Shown here in pieces: positions 10,312-26,504 of a stretch of 32,000 nt of DNA. The position numbers and the translations under genes were made by a program. The notes beneath the pieces are model-generated. The model was not told the DNA's origin, searched no databases, and saw nothing but the letters and a program-made list of their open reading frames with translations. This stretch comes from an uncultured archaeon. Its GTDB lineage: Archaea; Asgardarchaeota; Thorarchaeia; Thorarchaeales; Thorarchaeaceae. The stretch covers positions 60,001 through 92,000 of the forward strand of contig CAYHAA010000007.1 of the NCBI GenBank assembly GCA_964354495.1, given 5' to 3'. Position 1 is the first letter of the stretch. Every line of letters starts with the position of its first letter.

Positions 10312-10409
10312 ACTTATCCTTCCTGTATTCTACCACATAAACTACTCTGAGTCTAGTTTGTCGTGAGCAAGAGTTTATGTTTGCTTTCCACTGTTGTGTG
10401 TGGAGAGAT

Positions 10410-11807
10410 ATGATGGACTCTCTAATCCCTGTTCACGTTGGTCTGATGGGTCATATTGACCATGGAAAAACAGCGCTCGCACGAGTGTTGAGCGAACAGG
10501 TATCTACTGCAGGACTCGATAGGCATCCCCAAGCACAAGAACGCGGGATAACGATTGATCTTGGGTTCACCATGTTTGTCCTTGAGAACTATCTAGTGAC
10601 CCTCGTTGATGCCCCAGGACATGCCGATCTCATAAGGAGTGTGGTTGCTGGGGCAAATATCATTGATACTGCGATTCTAGCAGTGGCTGCAGACGAGGGC
10701 CCCAAGATTCAGACTGGAGAGCATTTAGTTGTCCTCTCTTCAATGGGTATTGATTCGTTGGTCGTAGCCATTACCAAAATCGACATAGCTGCAAACGACC
10801 AGATTGTTCAGATTGAGTCCAAAATGAAGAAGATTGTTGCTGATGCTGGGTTCAAGAAGGTCGAGTACGTCCGAGTTTCAGCTCACCGGAATGAAGGTAT
10901 AGATAGACTTCGCGAGGCGCTTCTCAGAGTTCTCGTTCCCAGAGTGCGCGATGTGAACGGTCCTCTCTTGATACCCATCGATCATGCCTTTCCAGTGAAA
11001 GGCCATGGCACTGTTGCAACGGGCACAGTTATTCGAGGAAGACTTGCGGAAGGCGCCCTCGTTGAGATTGCACCTCTCGGCATCAGCAGTAGAGTTCGCT
11101 CAATCGAGACCTTCAGTCACAACAGGTCTCAGGCATCTGCTGGTGACCGAGTTGGAATCAATATTCCTGAGGTGGACCCCACTCTAATTACTCGGGGCGA
11201 CTATCTCTGTGCTCCCAAGAGTATTCCAACCTCTGATTGCGTTCATGTGCATATCAATGTCAATCCACTATACAACGGCAGAATCACAAAGAATCTCGTA
11301 GTGAGCGCGGCATTGGGTATGCCGGTATCGACAGGGCAAATCATCCCCTTTCGGGTGGTCGGAGGTCTCCGGGTTGTGGTGGACTCAATCGAAGGGTTGG
11401 AATTCGACGCAGCTCTTGCCCTTCAGAAGCCAGTGGCAGTAGATGCACACGCTAGAGTCTTACTTCTCCGAACGGATCTGCCTCCTACTCAGATGCGGAT
11501 TGTTGGGTCCGGCATCATTACTGAGATTCCAGACAACATCATACTGCAGCGCAGAAAGATCCGCACTGGCAAGGTCCAGAGGATTCGTGATCATGATGTC
11601 CTTGTCGAGGGACTTGCCTCTAGCAAGAAGGTGGCTGAATCACTGGTAGAGATGCGAGTGAAAACAAGAGGCGGCGTAGACGGTATTATTAGGGCAACAT
11701 TTGGTACGAGAGGTGTTGTTTCCGTAGAGTTTAGTACTCCTATCGAGAAGAATGAAGAAGTGGACTATGAGAGGTTTGTAGAGGAGACTTACAACTTTGG
11801 ACCGTGA
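10410..11807 (+). CDS. selB: Selenocysteine-specific elongation factor (archaeal SelB/EF-Sec)
   Basis: GHIDHGKT, ERGITIDLGF, DAPGHADL and TKID; ~465 aa; overlaps the SepSecS gene. Confidence 0.9.
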   Translation: MMDSLIPVHVGLMGHIDHGKTALARVLSEQVSTAGLDRHPQAQERGITIDLGFTMFVLENYLVTLVDAPGHADLIRSVVAGANIIDTAILAVAADEGPKIQTGEHLVVLSSMGIDSLVVAITKIDIAANDQIVQIESKMKKIVADAGFKKVEYVRVSAHRNEGIDRLREALLRVLVPRVRDVNGPLLIPIDHAFPVKGHGTVATGTVIRGRLAEGALVEIAPLGISSRVRSIETFSHNRSQASAGDRVGINIPEVDPTLITRGDYLCAPKSIPTSDCVHVHINVNPLYNGRITKNLVVSAALGMPVSTGQIIPFRVVGGLRVVVDSIEGLEFDAALALQKPVAVDAHARVLLLRTDLPPTQMRIVGSGIITEIPDNIILQRRKIRTGKVQRIRDHDVLVEGLASSKKVAESLVEMRVKTRGGVDGIIRATFGTRGVVSVEFSTPIEKNEEVDYERFVEETYNFGP

Positions 11808-13116
11808 TGAGTTTGACAGGATACTAGACAAGACGATTCCTGAGAGCATGGCACGTCGAGGTCGCACAACCATTGACTCCATGATGGCTCCGATTCGAGA
11901 CGTTTTGAACAGAAGGGTCTTCCCTGACAAGTCATTGACAGATGCACAGCTCGAACTGATGGTCCAGATTCTCTCATCCATGGACACAGACAAGGACCCA
12001 GAGGCTGCTCGAGTGGGAGAACGTGAGGGTCGCATTGCATCGCCTTTCGTCGGCGCTCTTGCAGCTGGCTTCAATCATGGCGTTGGGAGAAGTGGTCAGC
12101 TCAGCGCTCCCCAACCAAAGGCTGCGGGAGCATCCCTGATGCAGCAGGTTGCCAACACTGTTGCCCTCGATGCAATTCGCAAACTAGGGCTGAGTAATGT
12201 GAAGGCAGGTATTGTCACCCCTCTCTCTACAGGAATGACACTTGCTCTCGTACTGGGTGCCCTGCGAAGAGAGTTGCATATTCAAAGAGTACTCTATCCT
12301 CGAATTGACCACATCTCACCTAGACGAGGAATCTCCCTCACTGGTCTGAAAGAGGTACCAGTATCGACACTCATTGAAGATGATGCAGTCCGTGTCAATC
12401 TCAGTGAATTAGAAACACTAATCTCCAAGACCAAGTCCTGTGCAGTTCTCTGTACTACTACCTTCTTTCCACCACGAGAGTCTGATCCCGTGAAAGCTGT
12501 TGCACGGCTATGTGCGGACCATGATGTCCCCCTGGTGGTCAATAATGCCTACGGGGTGCAGTCTCAAGACATAATGAACCAGTTAAGGTCTGCAGTTGAT
12601 GCTGGTCGTGTTGACGCCATCGTTCAGAGCAGTGATAAGAACTTCATGGCGCCAGTTGGTGGTTCTATCATTGTATCACCGAACCCTGCTGTCATTGACT
12701 GGACAGCAGATACCTATGCGGGTAGAGCAACAGCGGCGCCCATTGTCCAAACGCTAGCAGCCCTTCTCTCTCTTGGTCTTGACAGATATCAGGACCTGCA
12801 GCAACAGCAACTAGAGAACCTTGCATTTCTTAGGGACCAACTTGCAGCAATTGCTGAAACACATGGCCAACGGGTCCTTGATGTCAAGAATCCTGTGGCC
12901 TGGGCAATGACCCTGAATGGTCTTGATGTCAAAGAGATTGGGGCTCGGCTGTACAATGCTAGGGTCACAGGGCCAAGAACGGTCGAGGCTGGAGCCTTTG
13001 GGTCCTCTGTCGAGAGCTATCCTCACAGTTACATCGTGATGAATGCTGCAATCGGAGCGAGCCATGAAGACGTCGAGACTGCGACAACTAAACTTGATAA
13101 GGAAGCTGGCAGATAG
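11797..13116 (+). CDS. spcS: O-phosphoseryl-tRNA(Sec):selenocysteinyl-tRNA synthase (SepSecS)
   Basis: GEREGR, HGVGRSG, PQPKAAG, NNAYG and PLP-Lys in SSDKNF. Confidence 0.95.
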   Translation: MDRDEFDRILDKTIPESMARRGRTTIDSMMAPIRDVLNRRVFPDKSLTDAQLELMVQILSSMDTDKDPEAARVGEREGRIASPFVGALAAGFNHGVGRSGQLSAPQPKAAGASLMQQVANTVALDAIRKLGLSNVKAGIVTPLSTGMTLALVLGALRRELHIQRVLYPRIDHISPRRGISLTGLKEVPVSTLIEDDAVRVNLSELETLISKTKSCAVLCTTTFFPPRESDPVKAVARLCADHDVPLVVNNAYGVQSQDIMNQLRSAVDAGRVDAIVQSSDKNFMAPVGGSIIVSPNPAVIDWTADTYAGRATAAPIVQTLAALLSLGLDRYQDLQQQQLENLAFLRDQLAAIAETHGQRVLDVKNPVAWAMTLNGLDVKEIGARLYNARVTGPRTVEAGAFGSSVESYPHSYIVMNAAIGASHEDVETATTKLDKEAGR

Positions 13117-13145
13117 TTATGAGTCCCTGAGGGAGGGCAAGATAC

Positions 13146-13799
13146 ATGACCGCAGCAGATGAACAGGCGAAAGTTTCCCGCACATTGAAATTCGGCTCTG
13201 ATGAGGCTGCAGCAGTGTTTCGTATTGCTTGGTATGCAATTGCCTCCAAGCCCAACGTTCTTCTTGAGGAGTATAGCGAGGGTGGAGACAAGCACTTCAA
13301 GGGGATGGCGCGCTTCTCTCTCCAGATTGCAGGTGAGAATAGTCAGGCCATAATTCGCTTGGATGAGTCCAAGTCCTCAGTTGAGATTGAAACGTTAGGC
13401 ATGGATGAAGTAGCTCTGGCAGGGTATGTAGGCGGCATCATCGAATCTTTGAAGGATGCAATAGACAAGTACCAATCCTTGCCGGAAGAGGACCGCGGAA
13501 GGCTTCGAAGGGCTCTGACTGCTAAGACGTGCTGGGACCGGATGGTCCGCGAGATTCTGAACAGATCCCCCCTGACCAACATCTATTACCAGGTAGCTCA
13601 TGGAAGAGAAATGGTCATCAAGGCTGTGGAGGGTGAGAACGGTGTGCACCCTATCACTCTTACTACCTCTGCTTGGTTGTCCCGAATAGAATCACTTCCC
13701 CGCGATCAAACCTTGCCCGGCTCTGTGGCCTCTGAACTGGCAAAGAAGAGTGTTGAATGGAAACACGAGACCCAGGAGATCATCAGCCGTTATCTCTAG
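13146..13799 (+). CDS. Hypothetical protein inside the Sec locus
   Basis: 217-aa ORF 29 nt after SepSecS, same strand; no family recognised. Confidence 0.8.
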   Translation: MTAADEQAKVSRTLKFGSDEAAAVFRIAWYAIASKPNVLLEEYSEGGDKHFKGMARFSLQIAGENSQAIIRLDESKSSVEIETLGMDEVALAGYVGGIIESLKDAIDKYQSLPEEDRGRLRRALTAKTCWDRMVREILNRSPLTNIYYQVAHGREMVIKAVEGENGVHPITLTTSAWLSRIESLPRDQTLPGSVASELAKKSVEWKHETQEIISRYL

Positions 13800-13803
13800 A
13801 TTC

Positions 13804-13810
13804 TTATAAG
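13804..13810 (+). promoter_or_regulatory. Probable TATA box of tRNA-Sec
   Basis: TTATAAG 33 nt before the predicted mature 5' end. Confidence 0.5.
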
Positions 13811-13843
13811 CAGCGCAGTAGCTTGTTTCTCGTGCTCATTTGT

Positions 13844-13934
13844 GGCCTTCTACAGAGCTAGTGGTCTGGCCCCGTGGGCTTCAAACCCATGATCGTGCAA
13901 GCGATAAGAGTTCGATTCTCTTTGAAGGCCGCCA
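13844..13934 (+). tRNA. selC: tRNA-Sec (anticodon UCA at 13881-13883), CCA encoded
   Basis: Hand fold: 9-bp acceptor (GGCCUUCUA/UUGAAGGCC), 7-bp D stem with UGGU loop, 6-bp anticodon stem with CUUCAAA loop, variable arm AUCGU-GCAA-GCGAU, 4-bp T stem with UUCGAUU loop, G73, CCA. Confidence 0.95.
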
Positions 13935-13935
13935 T

Positions 13936-14697
13936 CTATGTATCCAGAAGTCTTCGTAGTTGCTTTAGCGTCATTTTCCTTGCTGCTACCGTATCCAAGT
14001 CGTTCTCGATTGCCTTCTTGAGCACACTACGGCGAACATGTGAAACCTCCCGATTTCCCCGCAGTTCTGGATGTTTCTGGAGAAACTCTGTGACCGCCTC
14101 TCTTGTGATCTTGTCAATCATCTCGCCTGTTCTCTCAGTGATTCTTGTCGTTTCTTGTTCCTCTGCAACCTCCAGGCCATCAAGAACCTCGAGTATCTTC
14201 GCGGCCGCTGAATCAATGCTCTGGCCTGCCATGTCTACCTCTGCCGCTGGATAGTCCCACAGATATCGTCCTCCTGGCGGATCGAACCGTTCATCTATGC
14301 GCCTAATGATATCCTCAGTGATCTCTGTGCTCTCTCTCTTTCTATTCCATGAGATAGCATCCTCTAGCGACGTGGTCACATGGACGATGGCGAATATGCA
14401 CTCTCTCTCAAGAGCAATATTCAACAGGTCATGCCGCATGCTCTCGTAGTAGTTCGTATCATCATGGATCACACTCTTTCCCTGCCTGAGAAGTTTGTCT
14501 ACTTGTACCAGAGTGGCTTGCCGAACCATTCCCTCCTTCTCTGGTCGCCAGTCTGTGTAGTAGTCTACGTCACGCCACTCATCACTCGACACAATTGTGA
14601 CATCGGTGTCTAGTGCTGCTTTGATTGCATGTGCGAGAGTAGTCTTCCCAGAGCTAGGCAGTCCGCAGAGGGCAAGTAGGAATTGCTCCATTATCAA
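13936..14697 (-). CDS. pstK: O-phosphoseryl-tRNA(Sec) kinase
   Basis: GLPSSGKTT P-loop, DDTNYYESMR motif and C-terminal helical domain; abuts tRNA-Sec. Confidence 0.9.
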   Translation of the reverse strand: MIMEQFLLALCGLPSSGKTTLAHAIKAALDTDVTIVSSDEWRDVDYYTDWRPEKEGMVRQATLVQVDKLLRQGKSVIHDDTNYYESMRHDLLNIALERECIFAIVHVTTSLEDAISWNRKRESTEITEDIIRRIDERFDPPGGRYLWDYPAAEVDMAGQSIDSAAAKILEVLDGLEVAEEQETTRITERTGEMIDKITREAVTEFLQKHPELRGNREVSHVRRSVLKKAIENDLDTVAARKMTLKQLRRLLDT

Positions 14698-17746: not shown

Positions 17747-18193
17747 TCACTTCATCATCTTCTGTATCTTTGAGAGATGTCGAGACCTCTTCACTGCCTC
17801 CGCTGAGACCTCATAGACTTCTCCCTTCTCGAGAACATAGTGCTTTGTTGAAATCTCAGGAGCAAAGTGTCGTTTGATATCTTCGACAATGTAGTGTAGC
17901 TGCACACAGTGGGGACTTCCGTCGATGGTCAGAACCGTTACTCCAGTGATGCCTGCGTACTTGACTATGGAGCCAATCTTGAAGCCTGCCTGATTGACAT
18001 GTGTCTCTTCCAGACACACGTGAAGGACAGTGAGTCCTCCATCTCTCTCCGAGAGACTCTTAATGATGTCGGGGTATCTCTCCATACAGCTCCCGATCAG
18101 CAGGAGCCCGCCTTTGTCTCGTAGCGCCTGGTCCCCAACATTGGTTCGCATGAGATACTGGATTTCGCAGCAGTCCTTGCCCACTGTCACCAT
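17747..18193 (-). CDS. Cys/His-motif hypothetical protein (possible Fe-S/metal binding)
   Basis: LLIGSC, VCLEETHVN and IDGSPHCVQLH motifs; start overlaps upstream gene. Confidence 0.6.
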   Translation of the reverse strand: MVTVGKDCCEIQYLMRTNVGDQALRDKGGLLLIGSCMERYPDIIKSLSERDGGLTVLHVCLEETHVNQAGFKIGSIVKYAGITGVTVLTIDGSPHCVQLHYIVEDIKRHFAPEISTKHYVLEKGEVYEVSAEAVKRSRHLSKIQKMMK

Positions 18194-19128
18194 TTCCTAC
18201 GTTTCGAAATCCGCTCGTCATCCTCTTGGCCAGTACTTGGTCTTGGTTCTCCTAGAGGTGGAGCAATTCTTGCTATCATATCTCCCTCAAAAACATAATT
18301 CATGCGACTTAGGGAGATCACCACACCGTCAAAGGCAGACACGATGTCTATCTTATCCTGAACCTTGCCAATGACAGTTCCATTTCTGACGTTCTCTCCA
18401 AGATTGACCACCGGGACAAAGAAGCCTTCGGTTTCAGCATTGATGTGCTGTAGCCTTCCTGAGAGCGTGACAGAGGTCTCTATTCTCTCCCCCGTGATCA
18501 TGTCCTTGATTCGCATGAAGTTTAGAATCGCCTCACGGACCTCCACTGCTGCTTGTGAATCCACCTGGTCAGCATCACCACGCATCTCAATTGAGATCAC
18601 AGGGATCCCTTCATGTGCTGCTTCCGTTATCAGCGACCCTCGTTGACCTGCACATTGGACTGTGTTGGGGAGGGCAATCTGAGATGCCAGATTCCTCACA
18701 TGGATATACTCTCTGTGCATACCGGAGACGTGACTAGTACAGTTCTGTCGGTTCGTCTTGAGATGTATGATGTAGTCTGCCTGTGATGCCCTTCTCCAGA
18801 TCTCCCATGCTGTTCTCTCAGTGACTGTTCCGTGCTCATCGCCTGGGAACACAGAGTCTAAGTCCTTTGAGTCTAAGGGTGAAACCTTTGCTCCTAGTCG
18901 GAAGGCAAGTGGGTTCGCCACAGGCAAAATGGTCACCGATCCGTCGACGCGTTCCAGTCTTTCAAGATGCTTCATAATCAGATAACTCGCATAGACGCCG
19001 GTAGCAGACCCTCCGTCCATTGCTGCGATGATAAGTAGATTTGGTCGGTCCTCTCCAAGTGTATAGAACCCGAGTGTTGTACCTGTCTTTAGATCGACGT
19101 CCACTGCATCAACTGTAGCCTTCACCAT
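18187..19128 (-). CDS. Succinylglutamate desuccinylase/aspartoacylase (M14-like) family protein with degenerate active site
   Basis: GSVTILPVANPLAF, LDSVFPGD, SIEMRG and a C-terminal barrel-sandwich-like domain; HGxE replaced by MDGG. Confidence 0.75.
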   Translation of the reverse strand: MVKATVDAVDVDLKTGTTLGFYTLGEDRPNLLIIAAMDGGSATGVYASYLIMKHLERLERVDGSVTILPVANPLAFRLGAKVSPLDSKDLDSVFPGDEHGTVTERTAWEIWRRASQADYIIHLKTNRQNCTSHVSGMHREYIHVRNLASQIALPNTVQCAGQRGSLITEAAHEGIPVISIEMRGDADQVDSQAAVEVREAILNFMRIKDMITGERIETSVTLSGRLQHINAETEGFFVPVVNLGENVRNGTVIGKVQDKIDIVSAFDGVVISLSRMNYVFEGDMIARIAPPLGEPRPSTGQEDDERISKRRKW

Positions 19129-19188
19129 ACCAAGACCTTCTATCGACTCATGGGTCTGTTGTATGCCGCGAAGATATGAAGCAGTGTA

Positions 19189-19836
19189 TCACCTCTGACC
19201 GGACTTGATGATGTCAGGGCTGCAATTGAACAGGAAGACGTCTGTCTTGAAGTCGCGTCGTAGGAAAGAGTCATGTCGGCTGAGTGCATAACGGCTCTTC
19301 AGAGGAATATGTGGAGTCTCAAACAGATCGGGATGCCCGCACATCTTGGGATTGCCAATCCATGCGGTCGGAATCCCCAGGGCTACAATCTCAAGGCCCG
19401 CCATCGAAAGATACGGCTCCCAACTCATGAGAATGAAGGATGGTCTGTATCTCTTCACTGATTCAATAGCATCCAATGATTCCACCCACTTGGGGTAGGC
19501 AATATCATAGCGTCCGTCCTTGGCATCTGTGGCGATGATTCGGTTCTGAATGTATGGCTGAAGGAACTCTGTGAGCCTTCCATCTCCACTCATCACTTCT
19601 AACACGGTGCTACTATTCTCAGTCATAGCAAGAGATTCTGTGACAATCGAAGCAAGCTCCTCGATGAACTCATTGCTGTATATCTGAAAGAGCCATCTCC
19701 CTGCAATGTTTGATCCATTGCAGTATGACTTGACATCATCATTTCTTTCAAGCTCCTCGAAGAATCTAACGATGTCTGCATATGGCAGAAGATTCTCGTG
19801 AACATCGATGTATTCGTCATAGGGGCCGCGTTTCAA
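19189..19836 (-). CDS. Putative class I SAM-dependent methyltransferase-like protein
   Basis: VLEVMSGDGRL (motif I-like) and IIATD (motif II-like). Confidence 0.5.
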   Translation of the reverse strand: MKRGPYDEYIDVHENLLPYADIVRFFEELERNDDVKSYCNGSNIAGRWLFQIYSNEFIEELASIVTESLAMTENSSTVLEVMSGDGRLTEFLQPYIQNRIIATDAKDGRYDIAYPKWVESLDAIESVKRYRPSFILMSWEPYLSMAGLEIVALGIPTAWIGNPKMCGHPDLFETPHIPLKSRYALSRHDSFLRRDFKTDVFLFNCSPDIIKSGQR

Positions 19837-19899: not shown

Positions 19900-20181
19900 C
19901 TATGACTCTGCTCGTTGGCCGTTCTTCGCGAGCTCTTCTTGGATTGCACTCTCAAGCTTGGCTGTTGACACGTTCCCCTCAAAGTATTGAGAGCCCACAA
20001 GGACCCCCTGCCATGACACTCCAAGCTCTTTGGCCGTCTTGCTATTGGCTAAGTCCTCACTATACTCAACAACATCTCTGTACTTCCTAACAGCCTCGTA
20101 GATTCGTCCCAAGAAACCAGACACACTGCAGCTGCAGACCCCGACTGGCAGGAACACCTTTACCGCTACTTTTTCACTCAA
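19900..20181 (-). CDS. Small thioredoxin-fold/ArsD-like Cys protein
   Basis: VKVFLPVGVCSCS N-terminus and GVLVG beta-strand; directly downstream of acr3. Confidence 0.5.
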   Translation of the reverse strand: MSEKVAVKVFLPVGVCSCSVSGFLGRIYEAVRKYRDVVEYSEDLANSKTAKELGVSWQGVLVGSQYFEGNVSTAKLESAIQEELAKNGQRAES

Positions 20182-20209: not shown

Positions 20210-21259
20210 TTACATTGGTGTGCCTTTCCAGAATTCCTTCCTTCTGAGGTATTTGGAAAGGTATACCAACCCAAGCATAACCGGCACTTCCCAGAAAAGG
20301 CCCATTGTTGTTCCAAGAGCCGCGATGGATCCGACACCATACATCGAGATTGCTGTAGCAATGGCGATTTCAAAGTGACTAGAAGACCCAATGATCACAG
20401 TAATCGTTGCCTCTCTATAGGCGAGTCTTGCCAATCGAGTTATCAAAAGGCCATAGCTGACAGTTATCACAAAATGGAGCAATAGCGGAATTGAAACAAG
20501 TCCGAGCAGATCTGGATGTTCCAGCATTACAACGCCGTTCAGCGAGAAGAGCACAACTAACGTAGTCAGTAGAGCAACTAGGGCCAGTTTACCAACTGCT
20601 GGCTGATACTTCGTCGTGAACCAATCTTTTCCCTTCCAGTTCACAAGTGTCTTCCTTGTTACCAATCCAAGAAGCATTGGGGCACCAATAAAGAATGTTA
20701 CAGAGATGACTAATAGCACGCGGTTAATAGGAATGTTGGAAATTCCAGTGAGTATTGCTACTACGGGTGCATAGAGCACTAGAATCGTTGCCGTGTTTAG
20801 AGTTGTGTTCACAATATTCTGTTCTTGGTTTCCCTCAGCGAGATATCCCCAGACCAGCACCATTGCTGTACAGGGACTGGACGCAAGCAATATCACAGCT
20901 ACAATCAACTGCTCATTGCCTGCCAGAAAGGTCCGAGCAAGTAGATATCCAACAATTGGTGCTACTATCCAATTCGATACGAGTGTGATTATTATTGGTT
21001 TAGGATTTCTTCTGAGTTTTCTTAATTCAGATCCTTGAATATTAAGCATGGCTGGATACATCATCAAGAATAGACATATCCCGATTGGGACAGATATGCC
21101 GGCAATCTGCCATGAGTCTATAGCTTCACCAATCCCGGGCACTACTTGGGACAGGAATATTCCCAACACCATGCAAATGCCAATCCACAGTGGCAAGTAC
21201 TTCTCAAATGTACTGAGCTTCTTCCCGCTTGCTACTTGATTTGGTTGGCTAGTTGACAA
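20210..21259 (-). CDS. acr3: ACR3-family arsenite efflux transporter
   Basis: LMMYPAM, SPCTAMVLVWG (conserved Cys), SSHFEIAIATA and EVPVML; ~10 TM. Confidence 0.93.
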   Translation of the reverse strand: MSTSQPNQVASGKKLSTFEKYLPLWIGICMVLGIFLSQVVPGIGEAIDSWQIAGISVPIGICLFLMMYPAMLNIQGSELRKLRRNPKPIIITLVSNWIVAPIVGYLLARTFLAGNEQLIVAVILLASSPCTAMVLVWGYLAEGNQEQNIVNTTLNTATILVLYAPVVAILTGISNIPINRVLLVISVTFFIGAPMLLGLVTRKTLVNWKGKDWFTTKYQPAVGKLALVALLTTLVVLFSLNGVVMLEHPDLLGLVSIPLLLHFVITVSYGLLITRLARLAYREATITVIIGSSSHFEIAIATAISMYGVGSIAALGTTMGLFWEVPVMLGLVYLSKYLRRKEFWKGTPM

Positions 21260-21332: not shown

Positions 21333-21356
21333 AAATATCGGATAATCTCGATATTT
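21333..21356. promoter_or_regulatory. Putative ArsR operator upstream of acr3
   Basis: Inverted repeat AAATATCG-N8-CGATATTT adjoining the minus-strand AAAAGTTAAATA promoter element. Confidence 0.75.
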
Positions 21357-21443: not shown

Positions 21444-21740
21444 CTATCTGCTTGTCTTCTCATCAGCAAGTGAGCGCAGATCACGAATCATGCTACTGAT
21501 GCGTGAATCACTGAGCTTGTAGAGTTTCTTGGTACCATCGCGTCTAACAGAAAGAATACCCGATCTCACAAGTTGACTCAAGTATGAAGACACAGTAGAC
21601 TGTGAGAGACCCATTTCCGGATAGATCTCACATTGACAGCGTTCACCATCTTCCAAGAGCTCCACGATTTTCAGCCGTTCGTGATTCGATAGTGCCTTGT
21701 GGAACTGCATTCGCCATTCCATTCTTCTGTCAATATCCAT
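21444..21740 (-). CDS. arsR: ArsR/SmtB-family repressor
   Basis: KALSNHERLKIV, RCQCEI Cys pair and LSQSTVSSYL HTH. Confidence 0.9.
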   Translation of the reverse strand: MDIDRRMEWRMQFHKALSNHERLKIVELLEDGERCQCEIYPEMGLSQSTVSSYLSQLVRSGILSVRRDGTKKLYKLSDSRISSMIRDLRSLADEKTSR

Positions 21741-21811
21741 TTGCTATCCTACTCGCTGGTATCGATTAATCCTTGTTTACAAGAACACCGACAATAACAC
21801 ATTTCGGATAT

Positions 21812-21819
21812 CGATATTT
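21812..21819. promoter_or_regulatory. Operator half-site at the arsR promoter
   Basis: CGATATTT next to minus-strand CTATATAC TATA-like box (21820-21827). Confidence 0.5.
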
Positions 21820-21977
21820 GTATATAGCGATTATTACCGAACCATCAATAATTAGTCATATTTCTATACAGATTATGAAGGCCGGGATACGTTTCCGCGT
21901 GTTCTTATGTGGTTGTCTTCAAAGATGGACCTCAAGAGGGCATAACGCAAGCATCATTGGTCACCATAGAAACACTG

Positions 21978-22001
21978 ATATATCGAAATAATCCGATATT
22001 T
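21978..22001. promoter_or_regulatory. Putative ArsR operator upstream of the HdrA-N/DGC operon
   Basis: ATATATCGAAATAATCCGATATTT matches the reverse complement of 21333-21356 at 21 of 24 positions. Confidence 0.75.
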
Positions 22002-22018
22002 GATTGGACTTGTCCACA

Positions 22019-22396
22019 ATGAGTTCTGAAAAACCTGCCTTCATAATGTGTGTATGCACAGGCAAATGTCCGGGCTTTGCGAAGATGGACATCTGGGATT
22101 TTATCAACACGGTTAGAATGACTCTTCCTGTTAAGTATGGAGTCATTCATCCACAACTCTGTGAACGCGATGGTGATGCCTACCTTGAGAATACCCTGAC
22201 ACCTGGAGAAAAAGTGTTCGTTGCTGGCTGTGCTCCTGCAATGCAATACAAGCTCTTCCGTGATTCATTCGCAAAGAAGGGACTCGACGTGAAGAAGGAT
22301 CTTGTACCTATTGACGTGCGTGACATGACCACTGATGAGGCAGTAGAGAAGGTTTCACAGGAGTTGAAAAAGCATGGATATGATGTCGAAGGATGA
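22019..22396 (+). CDS. Stand-alone HdrA N-terminal-domain-like protein
   Basis: FIMCVCTGKC, HPQLC, FVAGCAP and PIDVRD resemble the HdrA N-terminal Fe-S domain. Confidence 0.7.
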   Translation: MSSEKPAFIMCVCTGKCPGFAKMDIWDFINTVRMTLPVKYGVIHPQLCERDGDAYLENTLTPGEKVFVAGCAPAMQYKLFRDSFAKKGLDVKKDLVPIDVRDMTTDEAVEKVSQELKKHGYDVEG

Positions 22397-22688
22397 GTCG
22401 AAGCCCAGTACAACTTTCATGGGCGTCAGTCGAGAGAAAATACCATGGTGGCCAATCGTAGACCTAGGGAAATGCGATGGCTGCAATGGTGAGTACGACT
22501 GCCTGAAGTTCTGTCCTCATAGAGTCTACAAGCCGCTTGAGGACTCCTCCAGAATCGAGGTTGAGAACCCATACAACTGCGTGGTCTTTTGCACAGCCTG
22601 TAGTAAGATGTGTCCTAGGGATGCAATCTCCTTTCCTGCAAAAGCGAACATCCTGAAGATCATCAAAGAAGAACGTGCCAACAAATGA
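22374..22688 (+). CDS. Ferredoxin-like 4Fe-4S dicluster protein
   Basis: CDGC..DCLKFCP and CVVFCTACSKMCP. Confidence 0.85.
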   Translation: MDMMSKDESKPSTTFMGVSREKIPWWPIVDLGKCDGCNGEYDCLKFCPHRVYKPLEDSSRIEVENPYNCVVFCTACSKMCPRDAISFPAKANILKIIKEERANK

Positions 22689-23536
22689 GGTCGATGCGAG
22701 TGGTGAAGAAATACATTCTACCCTGTGCAGGCTATGACCGTCCGGGTGGAGAGGTTTCTAGGGCTGTTGCAGAGCAACTAGCTAGGAATCGTGACGATGT
22801 TGTAATTGGAAGCATGGGCGCGCTATACAAGGAACGTCCCGGTGAGATGCGTGACTTCAGGGCCTCAGAGGTGATTTGCCTCGATGGTTGTGGAACACAC
22901 TGTGCCTCGGAACTTGCGATTGCACGGGGACGGAATGATGGAGCAGTTGTTTCTATTCCTGAGGCTGCAGGTTCAGGTGACGATTTTGAACAAAAGGTCC
23001 GCCATGTTATCGACGCCATGTCAAAGCATCTAGAAAAGAGAAAGGCGAAGGCCTCGCCCTCAACCAAAGAGATCTCCTCATTCTCTCTCGAATATCTTGA
23101 GGAAAAATTCGACAAGTTCACGCTTAGAGTCGCCAAAGGTATGTTGTACTCCGATAACGACTTCTGGGTCAGGATTGAAGGCGACAATGTCCGGATTGGT
23201 GCTTCAGATTTTCTTCAGCAGATGATATCTGATGTATATTATGTGAATCTCGTCGAGCCCGGCCATCATGTCGATATGTTTGATGACGCAGGGAAGATGG
23301 AGTCGACGAAGATCTTAGTGGAGATAATCGTCCCCCTGACTGGAACCATAATCGAAGTCAACAGCTCATTGGAGAATAGTCCAGAACTGATTAACGAGAG
23401 CCCATATGATAAGGGATGGTTCTACGTCATAAGACCGGACGACATTGACGAACTGGAACTGCTCAGGGATGCATCAAGCTATTTGCTTTACGCCTTGGCA
23501 AAGGCAAAAGAAGAGATTGGAAAGAAGGTGGAATAG
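22685..23536 (+). CDS. DGC-domain / glycine cleavage H (lipoyl carrier)-like fusion
   Basis: N-terminal PCAG..LDGCGTHCA; C-terminal VRIGASDF..MESTKILVEIIVPLTGTIIEVNSSLENSPELINESPYDKGW with lipoyl Lys. Confidence 0.85.
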   Translation: MRSMRVVKKYILPCAGYDRPGGEVSRAVAEQLARNRDDVVIGSMGALYKERPGEMRDFRASEVICLDGCGTHCASELAIARGRNDGAVVSIPEAAGSGDDFEQKVRHVIDAMSKHLEKRKAKASPSTKEISSFSLEYLEEKFDKFTLRVAKGMLYSDNDFWVRIEGDNVRIGASDFLQQMISDVYYVNLVEPGHHVDMFDDAGKMESTKILVEIIVPLTGTIIEVNSSLENSPELINESPYDKGWFYVIRPDDIDELELLRDASSYLLYALAKAKEEIGKKVE

Positions 23537-23539
23537 AGA

Positions 23540-23923
23540 TTGAAGAAAGTAGTCATTCCATGTAGTGGAATGGGAAAAGCATTGGGAGCTGTCACACGTG
23601 AGACTATCCCACTCTTGCCAGACTCCAAGAGTCCCCATGAGTATAGGACAGTCTGTCTGCCATTGCTGATGACCGATGATGATGAGTCAAAACGAATAGT
23701 GCTAGAATCAGCTGTCTATACGATCGATGGCTGTCCAAAGAAGTGTGCGTCAACTGTAGTCAAACATGTTGGAGCAACGCCAGTCATGGAGATACTAGCG
23801 GCGAGAGTTCTTGCAGAGCATAGAGAGCACAAACCCGAAACTGTACTTGACGTCGGAGATGGTGGACGCCTTCTTGCGAAAGATATCGTTGAGATAATCG
23901 CGAACGATGGAGGGACAGATTGA
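23540..23923 (+). CDS. DGC-domain putative zinc-binding protein
   Basis: PCSG..VCLP..IDGCPKKCA. Confidence 0.85.
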   Translation: MKKVVIPCSGMGKALGAVTRETIPLLPDSKSPHEYRTVCLPLLMTDDDESKRIVLESAVYTIDGCPKKCASTVVKHVGATPVMEILAARVLAEHREHKPETVLDVGDGGRLLAKDIVEIIANDGGTD

Positions 23924-24327
23924 TGACATTCAAACCGAAGGTTGGTCTAATCTCGTGTAGTGGTGAAGCATGTCCTGGAGGGAGAATCTCACGTGCTGCA
24001 ACACTTGAGGTCCTTCATCACCTGAAACCAACTGACACAGTCACGATATGTCTCCCACTATTCCTTGCCGGAGATGAGGGAGAGCGCGGATTTGCAAGCG
24101 TCTTTCCAACTATCACGGTGGATGGGTGCAGTAAACTCTGCGCAGCAAAGGGCACAGCCAAATATAGTAGCGAGCCTGCTGTGAGAATAAACATCGAGGA
24201 CTATACAGGTGAGGGATGTACAAGTACTGATGAAGAGATGCGGACACAGAGTGACAACAATCTGATCAAGAGAGTCGCCCAAGACTTGGCAGCTCATGTC
24301 GATCATCTTCGACAAGAGTGGGAGTGA
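23920..24327 (+). CDS. DGC-domain putative zinc-binding protein
   Basis: SCSGEAC..ICLP..VDGCSKLCA. Confidence 0.85.
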   Translation: MMTFKPKVGLISCSGEACPGGRISRAATLEVLHHLKPTDTVTICLPLFLAGDEGERGFASVFPTITVDGCSKLCAAKGTAKYSSEPAVRINIEDYTGEGCTSTDEEMRTQSDNNLIKRVAQDLAAHVDHLRQEWE

Positions 24328-24336
24328 TCCAGTGTC

Positions 24337-25529
24337 TTGAAGGGTAAACTTCAAACACGCGCGCTCGATTCAGCTATCTCTAGCTTCGATATCACGCTCC
24401 TGAGCCGACTAATCAGAGATGCGGCGACAAGCGGTCATATTCGTGATACATGTGACTACCTGCATATCGCCATGGGAAGTGCACATTCCATTAGCTCTGG
24501 AGTCTTGCGAGTAGCTGTCGTTTCGGCGTTTGAAATGTATGACTTCAAAGTTCTTGATGTTGATCCTCTTGAGATTCTCTCTGGACTTCAGGACCTTGAA
24601 CCCCAGGACATGATAGAATCTGCACGAAGAGCAATCATGTCTGCACTTGAGTTTCAAGTCCATAGGAGAAACACATTCTTTCTTGCAGTGGACAGGCTCC
24701 ACAGTTCTGAAGCCGCAGTCCTTGTCAAGGATATCATCAACGCCCGGAGAACTGAGTTGGAGGAGCTCTGTCACAGCAGTCCAACTCTAGAGCAACTCGC
24801 TGCCACTTACTATGGTTTTCAGTTTCTGACCTCTCAAATCAGAAGATCGGAGCTTGGTGAAGACACTCAGAAGTTATTCGAATGCCTTGAACTCGATACC
24901 GCTCAGGATGTCAAAGTACCCTCGAATGCATTGAAACCCGAGGCGGTCGTATTTCGAAATGTATCCGCGCAGACAGATGAGCTTCTCAGAAACACTCTCT
25001 ATCTGACTGGGTATGACTCGGGCGAGCGGGCAAAGTCGGCTGCCTGTCTTGGAGAGCTGGCTGATCCCAGAGCTGGACTTTACCTCTCAAAGGCGACGAG
25101 GGATGAGTACTCATGGGTCCGGAAGGCTGCTGTGTCTGCTCTTGGGCGAATAAGGTTCCTCGAAGACCCCGGGTGTGTTGTTGATGTCTTGAAGGATCTT
25201 GACGAAGGAACCAGAAATGCGGCATTGGAAAGCGTCTGTTCCGTGGGACCCAGGCTGTTCCTCTACTCCTCAATACTCTAGAGAATTACAGGGGCATCTC
25301 CTATCCTGAAGCGATTGAGGCAGCCAAGAAGGCTCACCCGCGAGCCTTGGACAATCTCGAGGCAGTATTGCAGTATCACTCTCGTACAGCCAGAGCCTTG
25401 GCCGCAAACGCACTAGGTAGAATCGGTGACAAGAGAGCCATCTCAGCACTTGAGAGAGCTATGCAGGATGAAGAATTCGAAGTGAGATCTGCAGCACAAG
25501 ACGCGCTCATTGAAATGAAAAGACTGTGA
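24337..25529 (+). pseudogene. HEAT/PBS-lyase repeat protein split by a frameshift near 25249-25251
   Basis: Frame of 24337 reads ..RNAALESVCSVG; the alternate frame continues QAVPLLLNTLE..AANALGRIGDKRAISAL..VRSAAQDAL to the stop at 25529. Confidence 0.7.
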
Positions 25530-25640: not shown

Positions 25641-26405
25641 TCAGATGATTCTCATCAAAATCATGACCGCAATCACCCACACTACAATGCCGAGCCCGGC
25701 CTTAATCTTTTGAGCTTGTATCCTCATGCTGGTTCTCGCCCCGAGATTCCCACCGATGAGGACGACAATGCCAGTCACCAAAATCAAGGGAATATCGAAA
25801 GCATGAAATGCCGCATGGCCAAGTAGACCGGAGAATGCTGAGAAGGATACAATCGCATGCGACGATCCTGCCGCGAACTTTGTAGGGTACTTGCAGATAT
25901 AGATCAGGAATGGAACGATTAGCACTCCGCCGCCAATTCCTAGCAAGCCCGATATGAGTCCTACACCGAAACTGAATAGCACGATGAGTGGGTACATGGT
26001 AGTGACCACGCGTTTTGGAAATTCATCCTCAATCTTTCCCCGTTCCCAAAACGTATAGACCATCCTCCCTCCGAGACCAGCCAAGAAGAACACAAACAAC
26101 CACAACAAGAAGGTTTCATCAACAAATACAACTAAGGCTCCGCCCATAAAAGCGCCCAGGCAGACACCAGGTATGAATAGGAAGGACGTCCTCAAGTCTA
26201 TCATCTTCTTGCGATACAAGACGTAACCCGCAGACAGCGATGTTATTAGAGTCAACACTAAGGATGTGGATGTGGAAATCGATACCGCATAGCCAAGTAG
26301 AATCAACAGCGGGGAGTACATCGACCCTCCGCCCTGACCAAACATCGAGAACACAAAAGCTATCAGAAAGACAAAGATGGTAGTGTATAGAAGTACAATA
26401 TCCAT
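25641..26405 (-). CDS. TauE/SafE-family sulfite exporter
   Basis: GQGGGSMYSP and GLLGIGGGVLIVP repeats, AAGSSH, multi-TM; likely ATG at 26405. Confidence 0.88.
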   Translation of the reverse strand: MDIVLLYTTIFVFLIAFVFSMFGQGGGSMYSPLLILLGYAVSISTSTSLVLTLITSLSAGYVLYRKKMIDLRTSFLFIPGVCLGAFMGGALVVFVDETFLLWLFVFFLAGLGGRMVYTFWERGKIEDEFPKRVVTTMYPLIVLFSFGVGLISGLLGIGGGVLIVPFLIYICKYPTKFAAGSSHAIVSFSAFSGLLGHAAFHAFDIPLILVTGIVVLIGGNLGARTSMRIQAQKIKAGLGIVVWVIAVMILMRII

Positions 26406-26504
26406 ATTGATGCACACCCGAGGGTTTTCGGCAAACTGGACTGAGCTGGTTGGTCAATCAGTGGAAACGCTGCCCTTTGGGATTCGAAGGGTTCCAGCAT
26501 GACG

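Follow-up and report, generated by a model that had tools for sequence, protein, structure and literature searches.

A DGC-GcvH fusion protein encoded in a conserved five-gene cassette beside arsenic-resistance genes in Asgard archaea and bacteria

The 32,000-nt stretch of DNA analyzed here (the window; positions 60,001-92,000 of contig CAYHAA010000007.1, or C7, of assembly GCA_964354495.1) originates from an uncultured Thorarchaeaceae archaeon and carries, on the plus strand at positions 22685-23536, an open reading frame for a 283-aa protein that joins a DGC domain to a GcvH-like domain. An earlier note on this DNA had described the protein as a DGC domain with the motifs PCAG and DGCxxxC, followed by a complete H-protein-like domain with the lipoylation motif MESTKI, and both parts of this description were confirmed. 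Residues 11-79 (22715-22921, plus strand) match the Pfam family DGC (PF08859) with 37.5 bits at a cut-off of 27, and residues 154-266 (23144-23482, plus strand) match GCV_H (PF01597) with 100.1 bits at a cut-off of 22.2, covering profile positions 2-115 of 122. PCAG corresponds to residues 13-16, with the Cys14 codon at 22724-22726, and DGCGTHC to residues 67-73, with the codons of Cys69 and Cys73 at 22889-22891 and 22901-22903, respectively. MESTKI (residues 205-210) contains the lipoylation hairpin E206-S207-T208-K209. The codon of Lys209, the predicted lipoyl-lysine, is located at 23309-23311 (plus strand), and the residue aligns with the Lys of ESMK in the canonical GcvH of the same genome.

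The DGC fold extends over residues 9-118 and is followed by a flexible linker of roughly 17 residues (~119-135) and by the GcvH domain (~136-283). An AlphaFold2 (AF2) model of the fusion, built from 58 homologs, has a mean predicted local distance difference test score (pLDDT) of 90 and a predicted template modeling (TM) score of 0.57, with low confidence only at residues 121-129. Together, these values indicate two domains that are each well folded in the model, with no fixed orientation relative to one another. The modeled H domain superposes closely on solved H proteins, such as that of pea (1htp; TM by target 0.96, rmsd 0.7 Å, Foldseek E 6.9e-14). Residue conservation was determined for 101 distinct DGC-GcvH fusions from archaea and bacteria. 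Cys69, Cys73, Glu206 and Lys209 are invariant, Cys14 is kept in all 98 fusions that cover its column, and Gly16, Gly22, Gly68 and Ser207 as well as the usual signature residues of H proteins are invariant or nearly so. The four cysteines conserved in the DGC family are incomplete in the fusion of the window, which has Cys14, Cys69 and Cys73 and, at position 43, a Ser in place of the Cys of strand 2. This Ser occurs in 38 of the 101 fusions and the Cys in 63, while Cys65, an extra cysteine, is present in 23.

When the DGC domain was modeled alone (pLDDT 94), a four-stranded Rossmann-like α/β sandwich was obtained, in which Cys14 would terminate strand 1 and start a Gly-rich loop with a conserved Lys/Arg at +5, and Cys69 and Cys73 would come after strand 3 at the start of a helix. 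A Foldseek search of this domain against the PDB gave no match below an E of 0.001. Likewise, a sequence search of the PDB with the DGC profile gave no significant match, the best being the GCxxxC stretch of NirA at E 2, a value at which the likeness to the cluster-binding motif of nitrite/sulfite reductases is not significant. The best result of a VIA structure search was 3pu6 (Z 9.2), followed by many generic α/β folds. The arsenate reductase 1jf8, which is of the low-molecular-weight protein tyrosine phosphatase (LMW-PTP) type, was found with a VIA Z of 7.4 (95 residues aligned, rmsd 3.4 Å), and Foldseek assigned LMW-PTP-type ArsC proteins probabilities of up to 0.92, yet with E values of at least 0.03. 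At the level of the models, the resemblance is one of shared α/β arrangement only. The loop C14-A-G-Y-D-R19 follows the pattern C-X4-K/R throughout the family, and the C-X5-R phosphate-binding loop of pI258-type ArsC was not found in it. Pfam predicts zinc binding for the DGC family, and the site may hold zinc, an Fe-S cluster or free thiols. Among Swiss-Prot models, the domain is most similar to AnvM (PA3880) of P. aeruginosa (TM 0.79 by query and 0.73 by hit, 17% identity), the only studied representative of the DGC proteins. AnvM is linked to anaerobiosis and oxidative stress, is upregulated ~100-fold under anaerobiosis, and contains, with the hyper-reactive Cys44, the most oxidant-sensitive cysteine of the proteome (PMC6650552).

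As the earlier note had observed, no gcvT, gcvP or L-protein gene is present in the 32-kb window. In this genome, gcvT adjoins a canonical 135-aa gcvH on contig C3, and gcvP is located on contig C21. At the TIGR00527 equivalog cut-off of 115.85 bits, the canonical GcvH scores 152.8, while the fused domain scores 103.9 by itself and 101.6 within the whole fusion; the identity between the fused and the canonical domain is 33%. Since a separate canonical gcvT-gcvH/gcvP set exists and the fused domain falls under the cut-off, a function of the predicted carrier outside glycine cleavage, as proposed in the note, is supported. The protein retains nearly all signature residues of the family and deviates by only 0.7 Å from solved H proteins, as would be expected of an ordinary glycine-cleavage H protein with an incidental extra N-terminal domain. 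We nevertheless consider this reading extremely improbable, because the canonical gcvH beside gcvT scores far above the cut-off that the fused domain fails to reach, because the fusion adjoins neither gcvT nor gcvP in any of 120 inspected loci, and because its distribution is patchy. Of 400 Asgard species genomes scanned, 313 have GcvH-type matches and ~57 have full-length fusions, and in the genus of the window the fusion was found in 6 of 28 genomes, which is the pattern of an accessory gene. In a tree of GcvH domains, fused and stand-alone rows were clustered, neither forming one clean clade, and some of the stand-alone rows are probably split cassette forms.

The genome also encodes a third GcvH-like paralog on contig C1 (L002:1357-1887), a 176-aa protein with an N-terminal extension of ~40 residues and an ESGK motif. 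It scores just over the PRK01202 cut-off and under that of TIGR00527, and its neighbors are uninformative.

The fusion gene is the third of five tightly packed genes in the order HdrA-N-like, ferredoxin, DGC-GcvH, DGC2 and DGC3. The first gene (22004-22396, plus strand), whose true start may be the ATG at 22019, encodes a protein of 125-130 aa that resembles the N-terminal domain of HdrA and has five invariant cysteines (CxCxxxC, HPQLC and GC). It aligns with residues 5-93 of the HdrA structure 7bkb at E 0.027 and is probably an Fe-S protein. The second gene (22374-22688, plus strand) encodes a 104-aa ferredoxin of the 2x[4Fe-4S] type and overlaps both of its neighbors, its stop codon overlapping the ATG of the fusion gene (ATGA). 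Two stand-alone DGC proteins follow, DGC2 (23540-23923, plus strand) with four invariant cysteines and DGC3 (23920-24327, plus strand) with four invariant cysteines and one more. The cassette genes overlap or lie 3-4 nt apart, which suggests co-translation. For comparison, a set of 41 Asgard loci was compiled, consisting of the window and 40 further species-representative genomes from each of which ~20 kb around the fusion were fetched, and their open reading frames were screened with a profile of each module protein. All five genes are complete and in the same order in 41 of 41 loci. The earlier note had taken the fusion for a self-contained two-domain device; this synteny argues instead for one subunit, the putative lipoyl carrier, of a five-protein cassette.

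A homology between the HdrA-N-like protein and the DGC domain was considered and rejected (hhalign probability 2.9%). A predicted complex of DGC2, DGC3 and the full fusion scored 0.01, which gives no verdict and was not used as evidence. Downstream of the cassette, the region 24337-25529 encodes a 314-aa HEAT-repeat protein, 10 nt after DGC3, and further on a 60-aa HEAT-like open reading frame (25347-25529). Only L062 among the other cassette loci yielded a HEAT homolog, and these genes therefore appear to have been added locally. A gene for an anion exporter of the TauE/SafE family (25641-26417, minus strand) converges on the end of the operon, and TauE homologs were also found close to three further Asgard cassettes (L076, L083 and L095).

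The fusion architecture occurs in ~98 clusters at 90% identity, the named ones of which are assigned to Thorarchaeota or Sifarchaeia, and the proteins are labeled in their sources as 'putative zinc-binding protein' or 'glycine cleavage system H protein'. Additional fusions, at 27-37% identity and including one of a Promethearchaeota genome, came from an exhaustive profile-free search. An assembly artefact, a possibility raised in the earlier note, is excluded by these occurrences. In three Asgard genomes (G123, G125 and G310), the DGC and GcvH-like parts are adjacent separate genes with a stop codon in the linker, and these pairs are the split counterpart of the fusion. In-frame stops in some fusion matches raised the possibility of selenocysteine at a catalytic Cys, which was rejected, as the stops lie in the linker or in broken copies. 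No plasmid-borne fusion was found in PLSDB, which contains only ordinary gcvH genes.

We then counted the neighbors of the cassette within ~9.5 kb in the 41 Asgard loci. ArsR is encoded in 34, the arsenite permease ACR3 in 23, a thioredoxin-like (Trx-like) protein of ~92 aa in 29, and the lipoate-protein ligase LplA in 7. At least one ars gene (arsR, acr3 or arsC) is present in 36 loci, and neither arsR nor acr3 is within reach in 5. With the alignment of the HdrA-N-like protein alone as query, 340 confirmed loci were obtained from a set of genomes that represents each GTDB species once, and the best 80 of these loci were examined. Among these, 73 have a full-length fusion, 3 end at a contig edge, and 4 have split or variant forms. 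The 80 include loci from Acidobacteriota, Actinomycetota, Bacteroidota, Armatimonadota, Bacillota, Planctomycetota and a Pseudomonadota metagenome-assembled genome. The record titles of 49 of the 80 name no archaeon, and in these loci, referred to below as bacterial, ArsR is found in 39, Trx_3 in 40, ACR3 in 20, LMW-PTP-type ArsC in 15, LplA in 12 and any ars gene in 42. The typical bacterial order is Trx_3, HdrA-N-like, ferredoxin, fusion, DGC, DGC. Across the best 80 loci, the HdrA-N-like proteins share 60-70% identity with the archaeal query, and this very high conservation between the two domains of life would mark the cassette as a mobile, selected trait.

Two variants of the cassette locus were observed. 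In two other Thorarchaeota genomes, a diverged second DGC-GcvH paralog (37% identity, P0101 type) is located upstream of the main cassette (L019:385-1209 and L091) and adjoins Redoxin, DsbD and Thioredoxin_3 genes. In ten loci of one Asgard family (f22; L064, L066, L070-L074, L076, L082 and L093), the divergent arm consists of arsR, a small Trx-like gene and a fourth stand-alone DGC gene (~155 aa), so that some cassettes have four DGC domains.

In the window, the genes preceding the cassette are on the minus strand. An arsR gene (HTH_5; 21444-21740, minus strand) lies between the cassette and acr3 and encodes a CQC motif, which presumably sits where the ArsR of R773 has its As(III)-binding CVC. 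The acr3-type arsenite efflux permease, assigned by Pfam to the SBF family, is encoded at 20210-21259 (minus strand); in many relatives, acr3 is found directly before the cassette on the same strand. Downstream of acr3, and thus on the other arm, is the gene of a 93-aa thioredoxin_3-like protein (19900-20181, minus strand) in which CSC replaces CxxC and which is the ortholog of the ~92-aa gene after DGC3 in relatives. A palindrome, ATATCG-N8-CGATAT, is located just upstream of the first cassette gene (21980-21999) and again upstream of acr3 on the minus strand (21335-21354). These are its only two occurrences in the 32 kb, at an expectation of 0.03 by chance, and most loci of the same archaeal family have it, exact or with 1-2 mismatches, equally far ahead of the first cassette gene. 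Both acr3 and the cassette are preceded by this one putative operator, and the cassette would belong to the ArsR regulon. A shorter palindrome, ATATCGATAT, within CGGATATCGATATTTGTATATAGCGAT (21804-21830), lies upstream of arsR, and ATATCGATAT could be a site of arsR autoregulation akin to the two 20-nt operators.

Other parts of the expected machinery are encoded elsewhere in the genome. The window contains no LplA gene, and LplA candidates are located on contigs C4 and C11. A pI258-type ArsC of the thioredoxin-coupled type, with the loop LCTGNSARS and a VCD...CP pair, is encoded on contig C27 (L020:1480-1893), unlinked to the ars locus of the window. The idea that the cassette serves solely as the missing arsenate reductase of the organism was rejected on account of this ArsC. 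In P. mercurii ND132, growth with arsenic is reported to alter the expression of operons that include a simpler one, arsR-arsP-Trx_3-DGC, and this bacterium is reported to form possible thioarsenicals (10.1101/2022.10.17.512643). The earlier note had suggested that the fusion acts as an arsenite sponge/carrier or as a redox shuttle. The connection with arsenic gained support from arsR, acr3 and the shared putative operator in the window and from the same neighbors in dozens of genomes; the two modes of action are weighed below.

Further genes were found in the window outside the conserved cassette of relatives. Downstream of acr3 and the Trx-like gene, three genes on the minus strand (17747-19836) are possibly part of the same transcript. 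The product of the first, of 215 aa, has a VLEVMSGDG motif and matches the DREV methyltransferase weakly (E 0.022); the second encodes a deacylase of the AstE/AspA type (18187-19128, E 1.3e-14), and the third a 148-aa protein without a family match. A 207-aa gene product at the equivalent place in locus L016 does not align with the 215-aa protein. At 10377-14697, the window contains a selenocysteine locus with SepSecS (11797-13116; PF05889, E 2.3e-112) and tRNA-Sec (13844-13934; ARAGORN, anticodon tca). Between these two lies a 217-aa open reading frame without a Pfam match (13146-13799), and they are flanked by open reading frames at 10377-11807 and 13936-14697.

The combination of a lipoylation-competent H-like domain tethered to a Cys-cluster domain, Fe-S and DGC partners, and linkage to ArsR, ACR3, a Trx-like protein and, at some loci, ArsC and a ligase points to a ferredoxin-fed lipoyl/cysteine redox relay serving arsenic detoxification, a model whose chances we put at about even. 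In this relay, a lipoate-protein ligase would lipoylate Lys209, and the two Fe-S proteins would draw low-potential electrons from the ferredoxin pool of the cell. These electrons would pass through the DGC cysteine clusters, acting as thiol relays or as Fe-S sites, so that electrons arriving singly are combined to reduce the lipoyl disulfide by two electrons. Held to its own DGC domain by the linker, the reduced arm would then swing out and hand its dithiol either to the Trx-like protein of the locus, which would serve arsenate reductase, or to an arsenical without an intermediate. As(III) formed or kept thiol-bound in this way would finally be exported by ACR3. Lipoylation, the direction of electron flow, the cofactor of the DGC site and the final acceptor are elements that we infer. 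The fusion has two Fe-S and two other DGC proteins as obligate partners, which favors an electron/thiol relay over a passive sponge.

Several observations weigh against such a relay. The genome already has a pI258-type ArsC and presumably ordinary thioredoxins, and a dedicated supply of reductant is not obviously needed; moreover, arsC is not adjacent in the Asgard loci. The Trx-like protein has CxC rather than the CxxC typical of redox proteins, and CxC would be no less suited to binding As(III) than to exchanging disulfides. An As(III)-S3 site likewise requires three cysteines, the number that is invariant in the fused DGC domain. Not every regulator of the ArsR family is known to sense arsenic, and within reach of the cassette, arsR and acr3 are both lacking at 5 of the 41 Asgard loci. 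As to the cofactor of the DGC site, the metal content of AnvM could not be determined (PMC6650552).

The main rival to the relay is an As(III) carrier or buffer. In it, arsenite would be chelated by the lipoyl dithiol and the three DGC cysteines, the three or four DGC proteins and the CxC Trx-like protein would pass As(III) to ACR3 as an ArsD-like chaperone chain, and the role of the Fe-S proteins would be limited to holding the thiols in the reduced state. Dihydrolipoyl groups are well known to bind As(III) with high affinity, and ArsD is an As(III) chaperone with a thioredoxin fold and vicinal cysteines. Such a carrier would account for the invariance of Cys14, Cys69 and Cys73, the number needed for an As(III)-S3 site, for the CxC at the CxxC position of the Asgard Trx-like partner, and for the many relatives in which acr3 directly precedes the cassette on the same strand, and it is in line with the minimal arsR-arsP-Trx_3-DGC operons, which lack any Fe-S gene. 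However, a stoichiometric chelator would hardly require two Fe-S electron-transfer proteins, which are obligate in the Asgard loci (41 of 41). In addition, most DGC domains have four invariant cysteines and not three, As(III) would lock the lipoyl arm unless some mechanism released it, and we know of no chaperone for secondary carriers of the ACR3 type. We therefore regard the carrier as possible, though doubtful. Alternatively, the cassette could be an enzyme system for an arsenical beyond the reach of ArsC, with pentavalent methyl or aromatic arsenicals or thioarsenates converted into exportable trivalent forms by the catalytic thiols of the DGC domains and with the lipoyl arm as two-electron donor. 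That the cassette accompanies ArsC instead of replacing it (15 of 49 bacterial loci and the genome of the window) suggests a different substrate, and in P. mercurii ND132, with its possible thioarsenicals, DGC genes lie beside that of the organoarsenical permease ArsP. The carriers of the cassette, judged by their record titles, come mostly from anoxic, sulfidic habitats. The DGC domain, in which one Cys ends strand 1 and opens a Gly-rich loop while two more follow strand 3, also recalls LMW-PTP-type ArsC in its layout, but this likeness of fold is generic, since Z values of 7-9 are the typical best for unmatched models, and the loop is C-X4-K/R and not the C-X5-R P-loop. The exporter linked in most loci is the arsenite permease ACR3 and not ArsP. 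We consider an enzyme of this kind improbable.

A still less probable reading is that of a general module for thiol/disulfide or sulfur-trafficking stress, only loosely linked to arsenic, whose ArsR/SmtB-family regulator would sense another thiophilic signal. The Asgard loci without acr3 (18 of 41), among them the 5 that also lack arsR, would fit this reading, as would the Redoxin, DsbD and TauE genes at some loci and a layout that recalls the sHdr-LbpA sulfur systems. AnvM, too, is tied to anaerobiosis and oxidative stress and not to arsenic (PMC6650552). On the other hand, 36 of the 41 Asgard loci and 42 of the 49 bacterial ones include an ars gene. In the window, CxC occupies the As(III)-site position of ArsR, and the putative operator of the cassette recurs upstream of acr3. 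ACR3 itself is specific for As(III)/Sb(III). Returning to the redox relay, a bolder version of it, which we put forward only tentatively, would see in the cassette an unrecognised, widely transferred arsenic-detoxification machine of anaerobes. Its ferredoxin-driven Fe-S/DGC core would reduce the tethered lipoyl arm, and the arm, with lipoate as the working cofactor, would act on arsenicals as reductant or carrier, its targets possibly including methylated or thiolated As(V) species without a known reductase.

Arsenite is thought to poison cells largely by binding to dihydrolipoyl groups. A lipoyl protein inside an arsenic regulon, present in ~340 species-level genomes that include those of Asgard archaea, Acidobacteriota, Actinomycetota and Bacteroidota, would turn this picture of lipoate as the victim around. 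If the relay is correct, the well-studied ars system would gain a new component, and the DGC domain (PF08859) and the stand-alone HdrA N-domain would each gain a first biochemical role. It would also constitute a third type of non-canonical lipoyl carrier, beside sHdr-LbpA and the mycobacterial AhpD relay, and would hint at how strict anaerobes route ferredoxin electrons into thiol-based detoxification. The fusion architecture as such is already visible in public Pfam annotations. Literature searches on the cassette, on DGC proteins and arsenic, and on GcvH in ars operons gave no description of the cassette or of a lipoyl carrier in an ars operon, and none of the five proteins could be matched to an ars gene that has a name. 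Surveys of arsenic cycling currently miss the cassette.

Compared with known systems, the fused H-like domain shares with GcvH (PF01597, TIGR00527) the fold, the ES-x-K lipoylation hairpin and the signature residues, but it differs in being joined to a DGC domain, in belonging to an ArsR-linked cassette without gcvT or gcvP, and in its patchy spread. The DGC domain, in turn, has the same DGC motif and the same cysteine cluster as AnvM, whereas AnvM is a stand-alone protein of 131 aa that is described as a modulator binding to regulators and has neither a lipoyl domain nor a link to arsenic. LbpA of sHdr sulfur oxidation provides a precedent for a lipoyl carrier outside central metabolism (PMC6067878). 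The sHdr-LbpA system resembles the cassette in combining a GcvH-like lipoyl carrier with Hdr-related Fe-S proteins and small Cys-containing carrier proteins. A dedicated LplA-type ligase gene, often present beside such clusters, is near the cassette in 7 of 41 Asgard and 12 of 49 bacterial loci and absent from the window. Unlike sHdr, however, the cassette has no HdrB/HdrC (CCG-domain) gene and no full hdrA, and accordingly no linkage of the hdrC1B1AHC2B2 type was found; a stand-alone HdrA N-domain-like protein and a ferredoxin are encoded instead. The partners are DGC proteins and not DsrE/TusA, the carrier is fused to a DGC domain, and the setting is a putative arsenic-resistance regulon and not sulfur oxidation.

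The accessory thiol proteins of ars operons, such as thioredoxin-coupled ArsC, ArsD and those of the ND132 operon, share with the cassette a setting of arsR, acr3, sometimes arsC, and Trx_3-type genes, and cysteine chemistry is expected in both. In contrast to the cassette, none of the described ars genes encodes a lipoyl carrier or a pair of Fe-S proteins for electron input. In the Lpd-DlaT-AhpD-AhpC relay of M. tuberculosis, a protein-bound dihydrolipoyl group is the two-electron donor to a thioredoxin-like thiol protein in detoxification. This is similar to the logic proposed here, in which electrons would pass from the lipoyl arm to a Trx-like protein and on to arsenic handling. The two systems differ at the points of entry and transfer: the mycobacterial relay is fed by NADH via a flavoprotein and uses the E2 component of pyruvate dehydrogenase as its carrier, whereas the cassette is predicted to receive its electrons from Fe-S proteins and ferredoxin and to pass them on through a dedicated, DGC-fused H-like protein.

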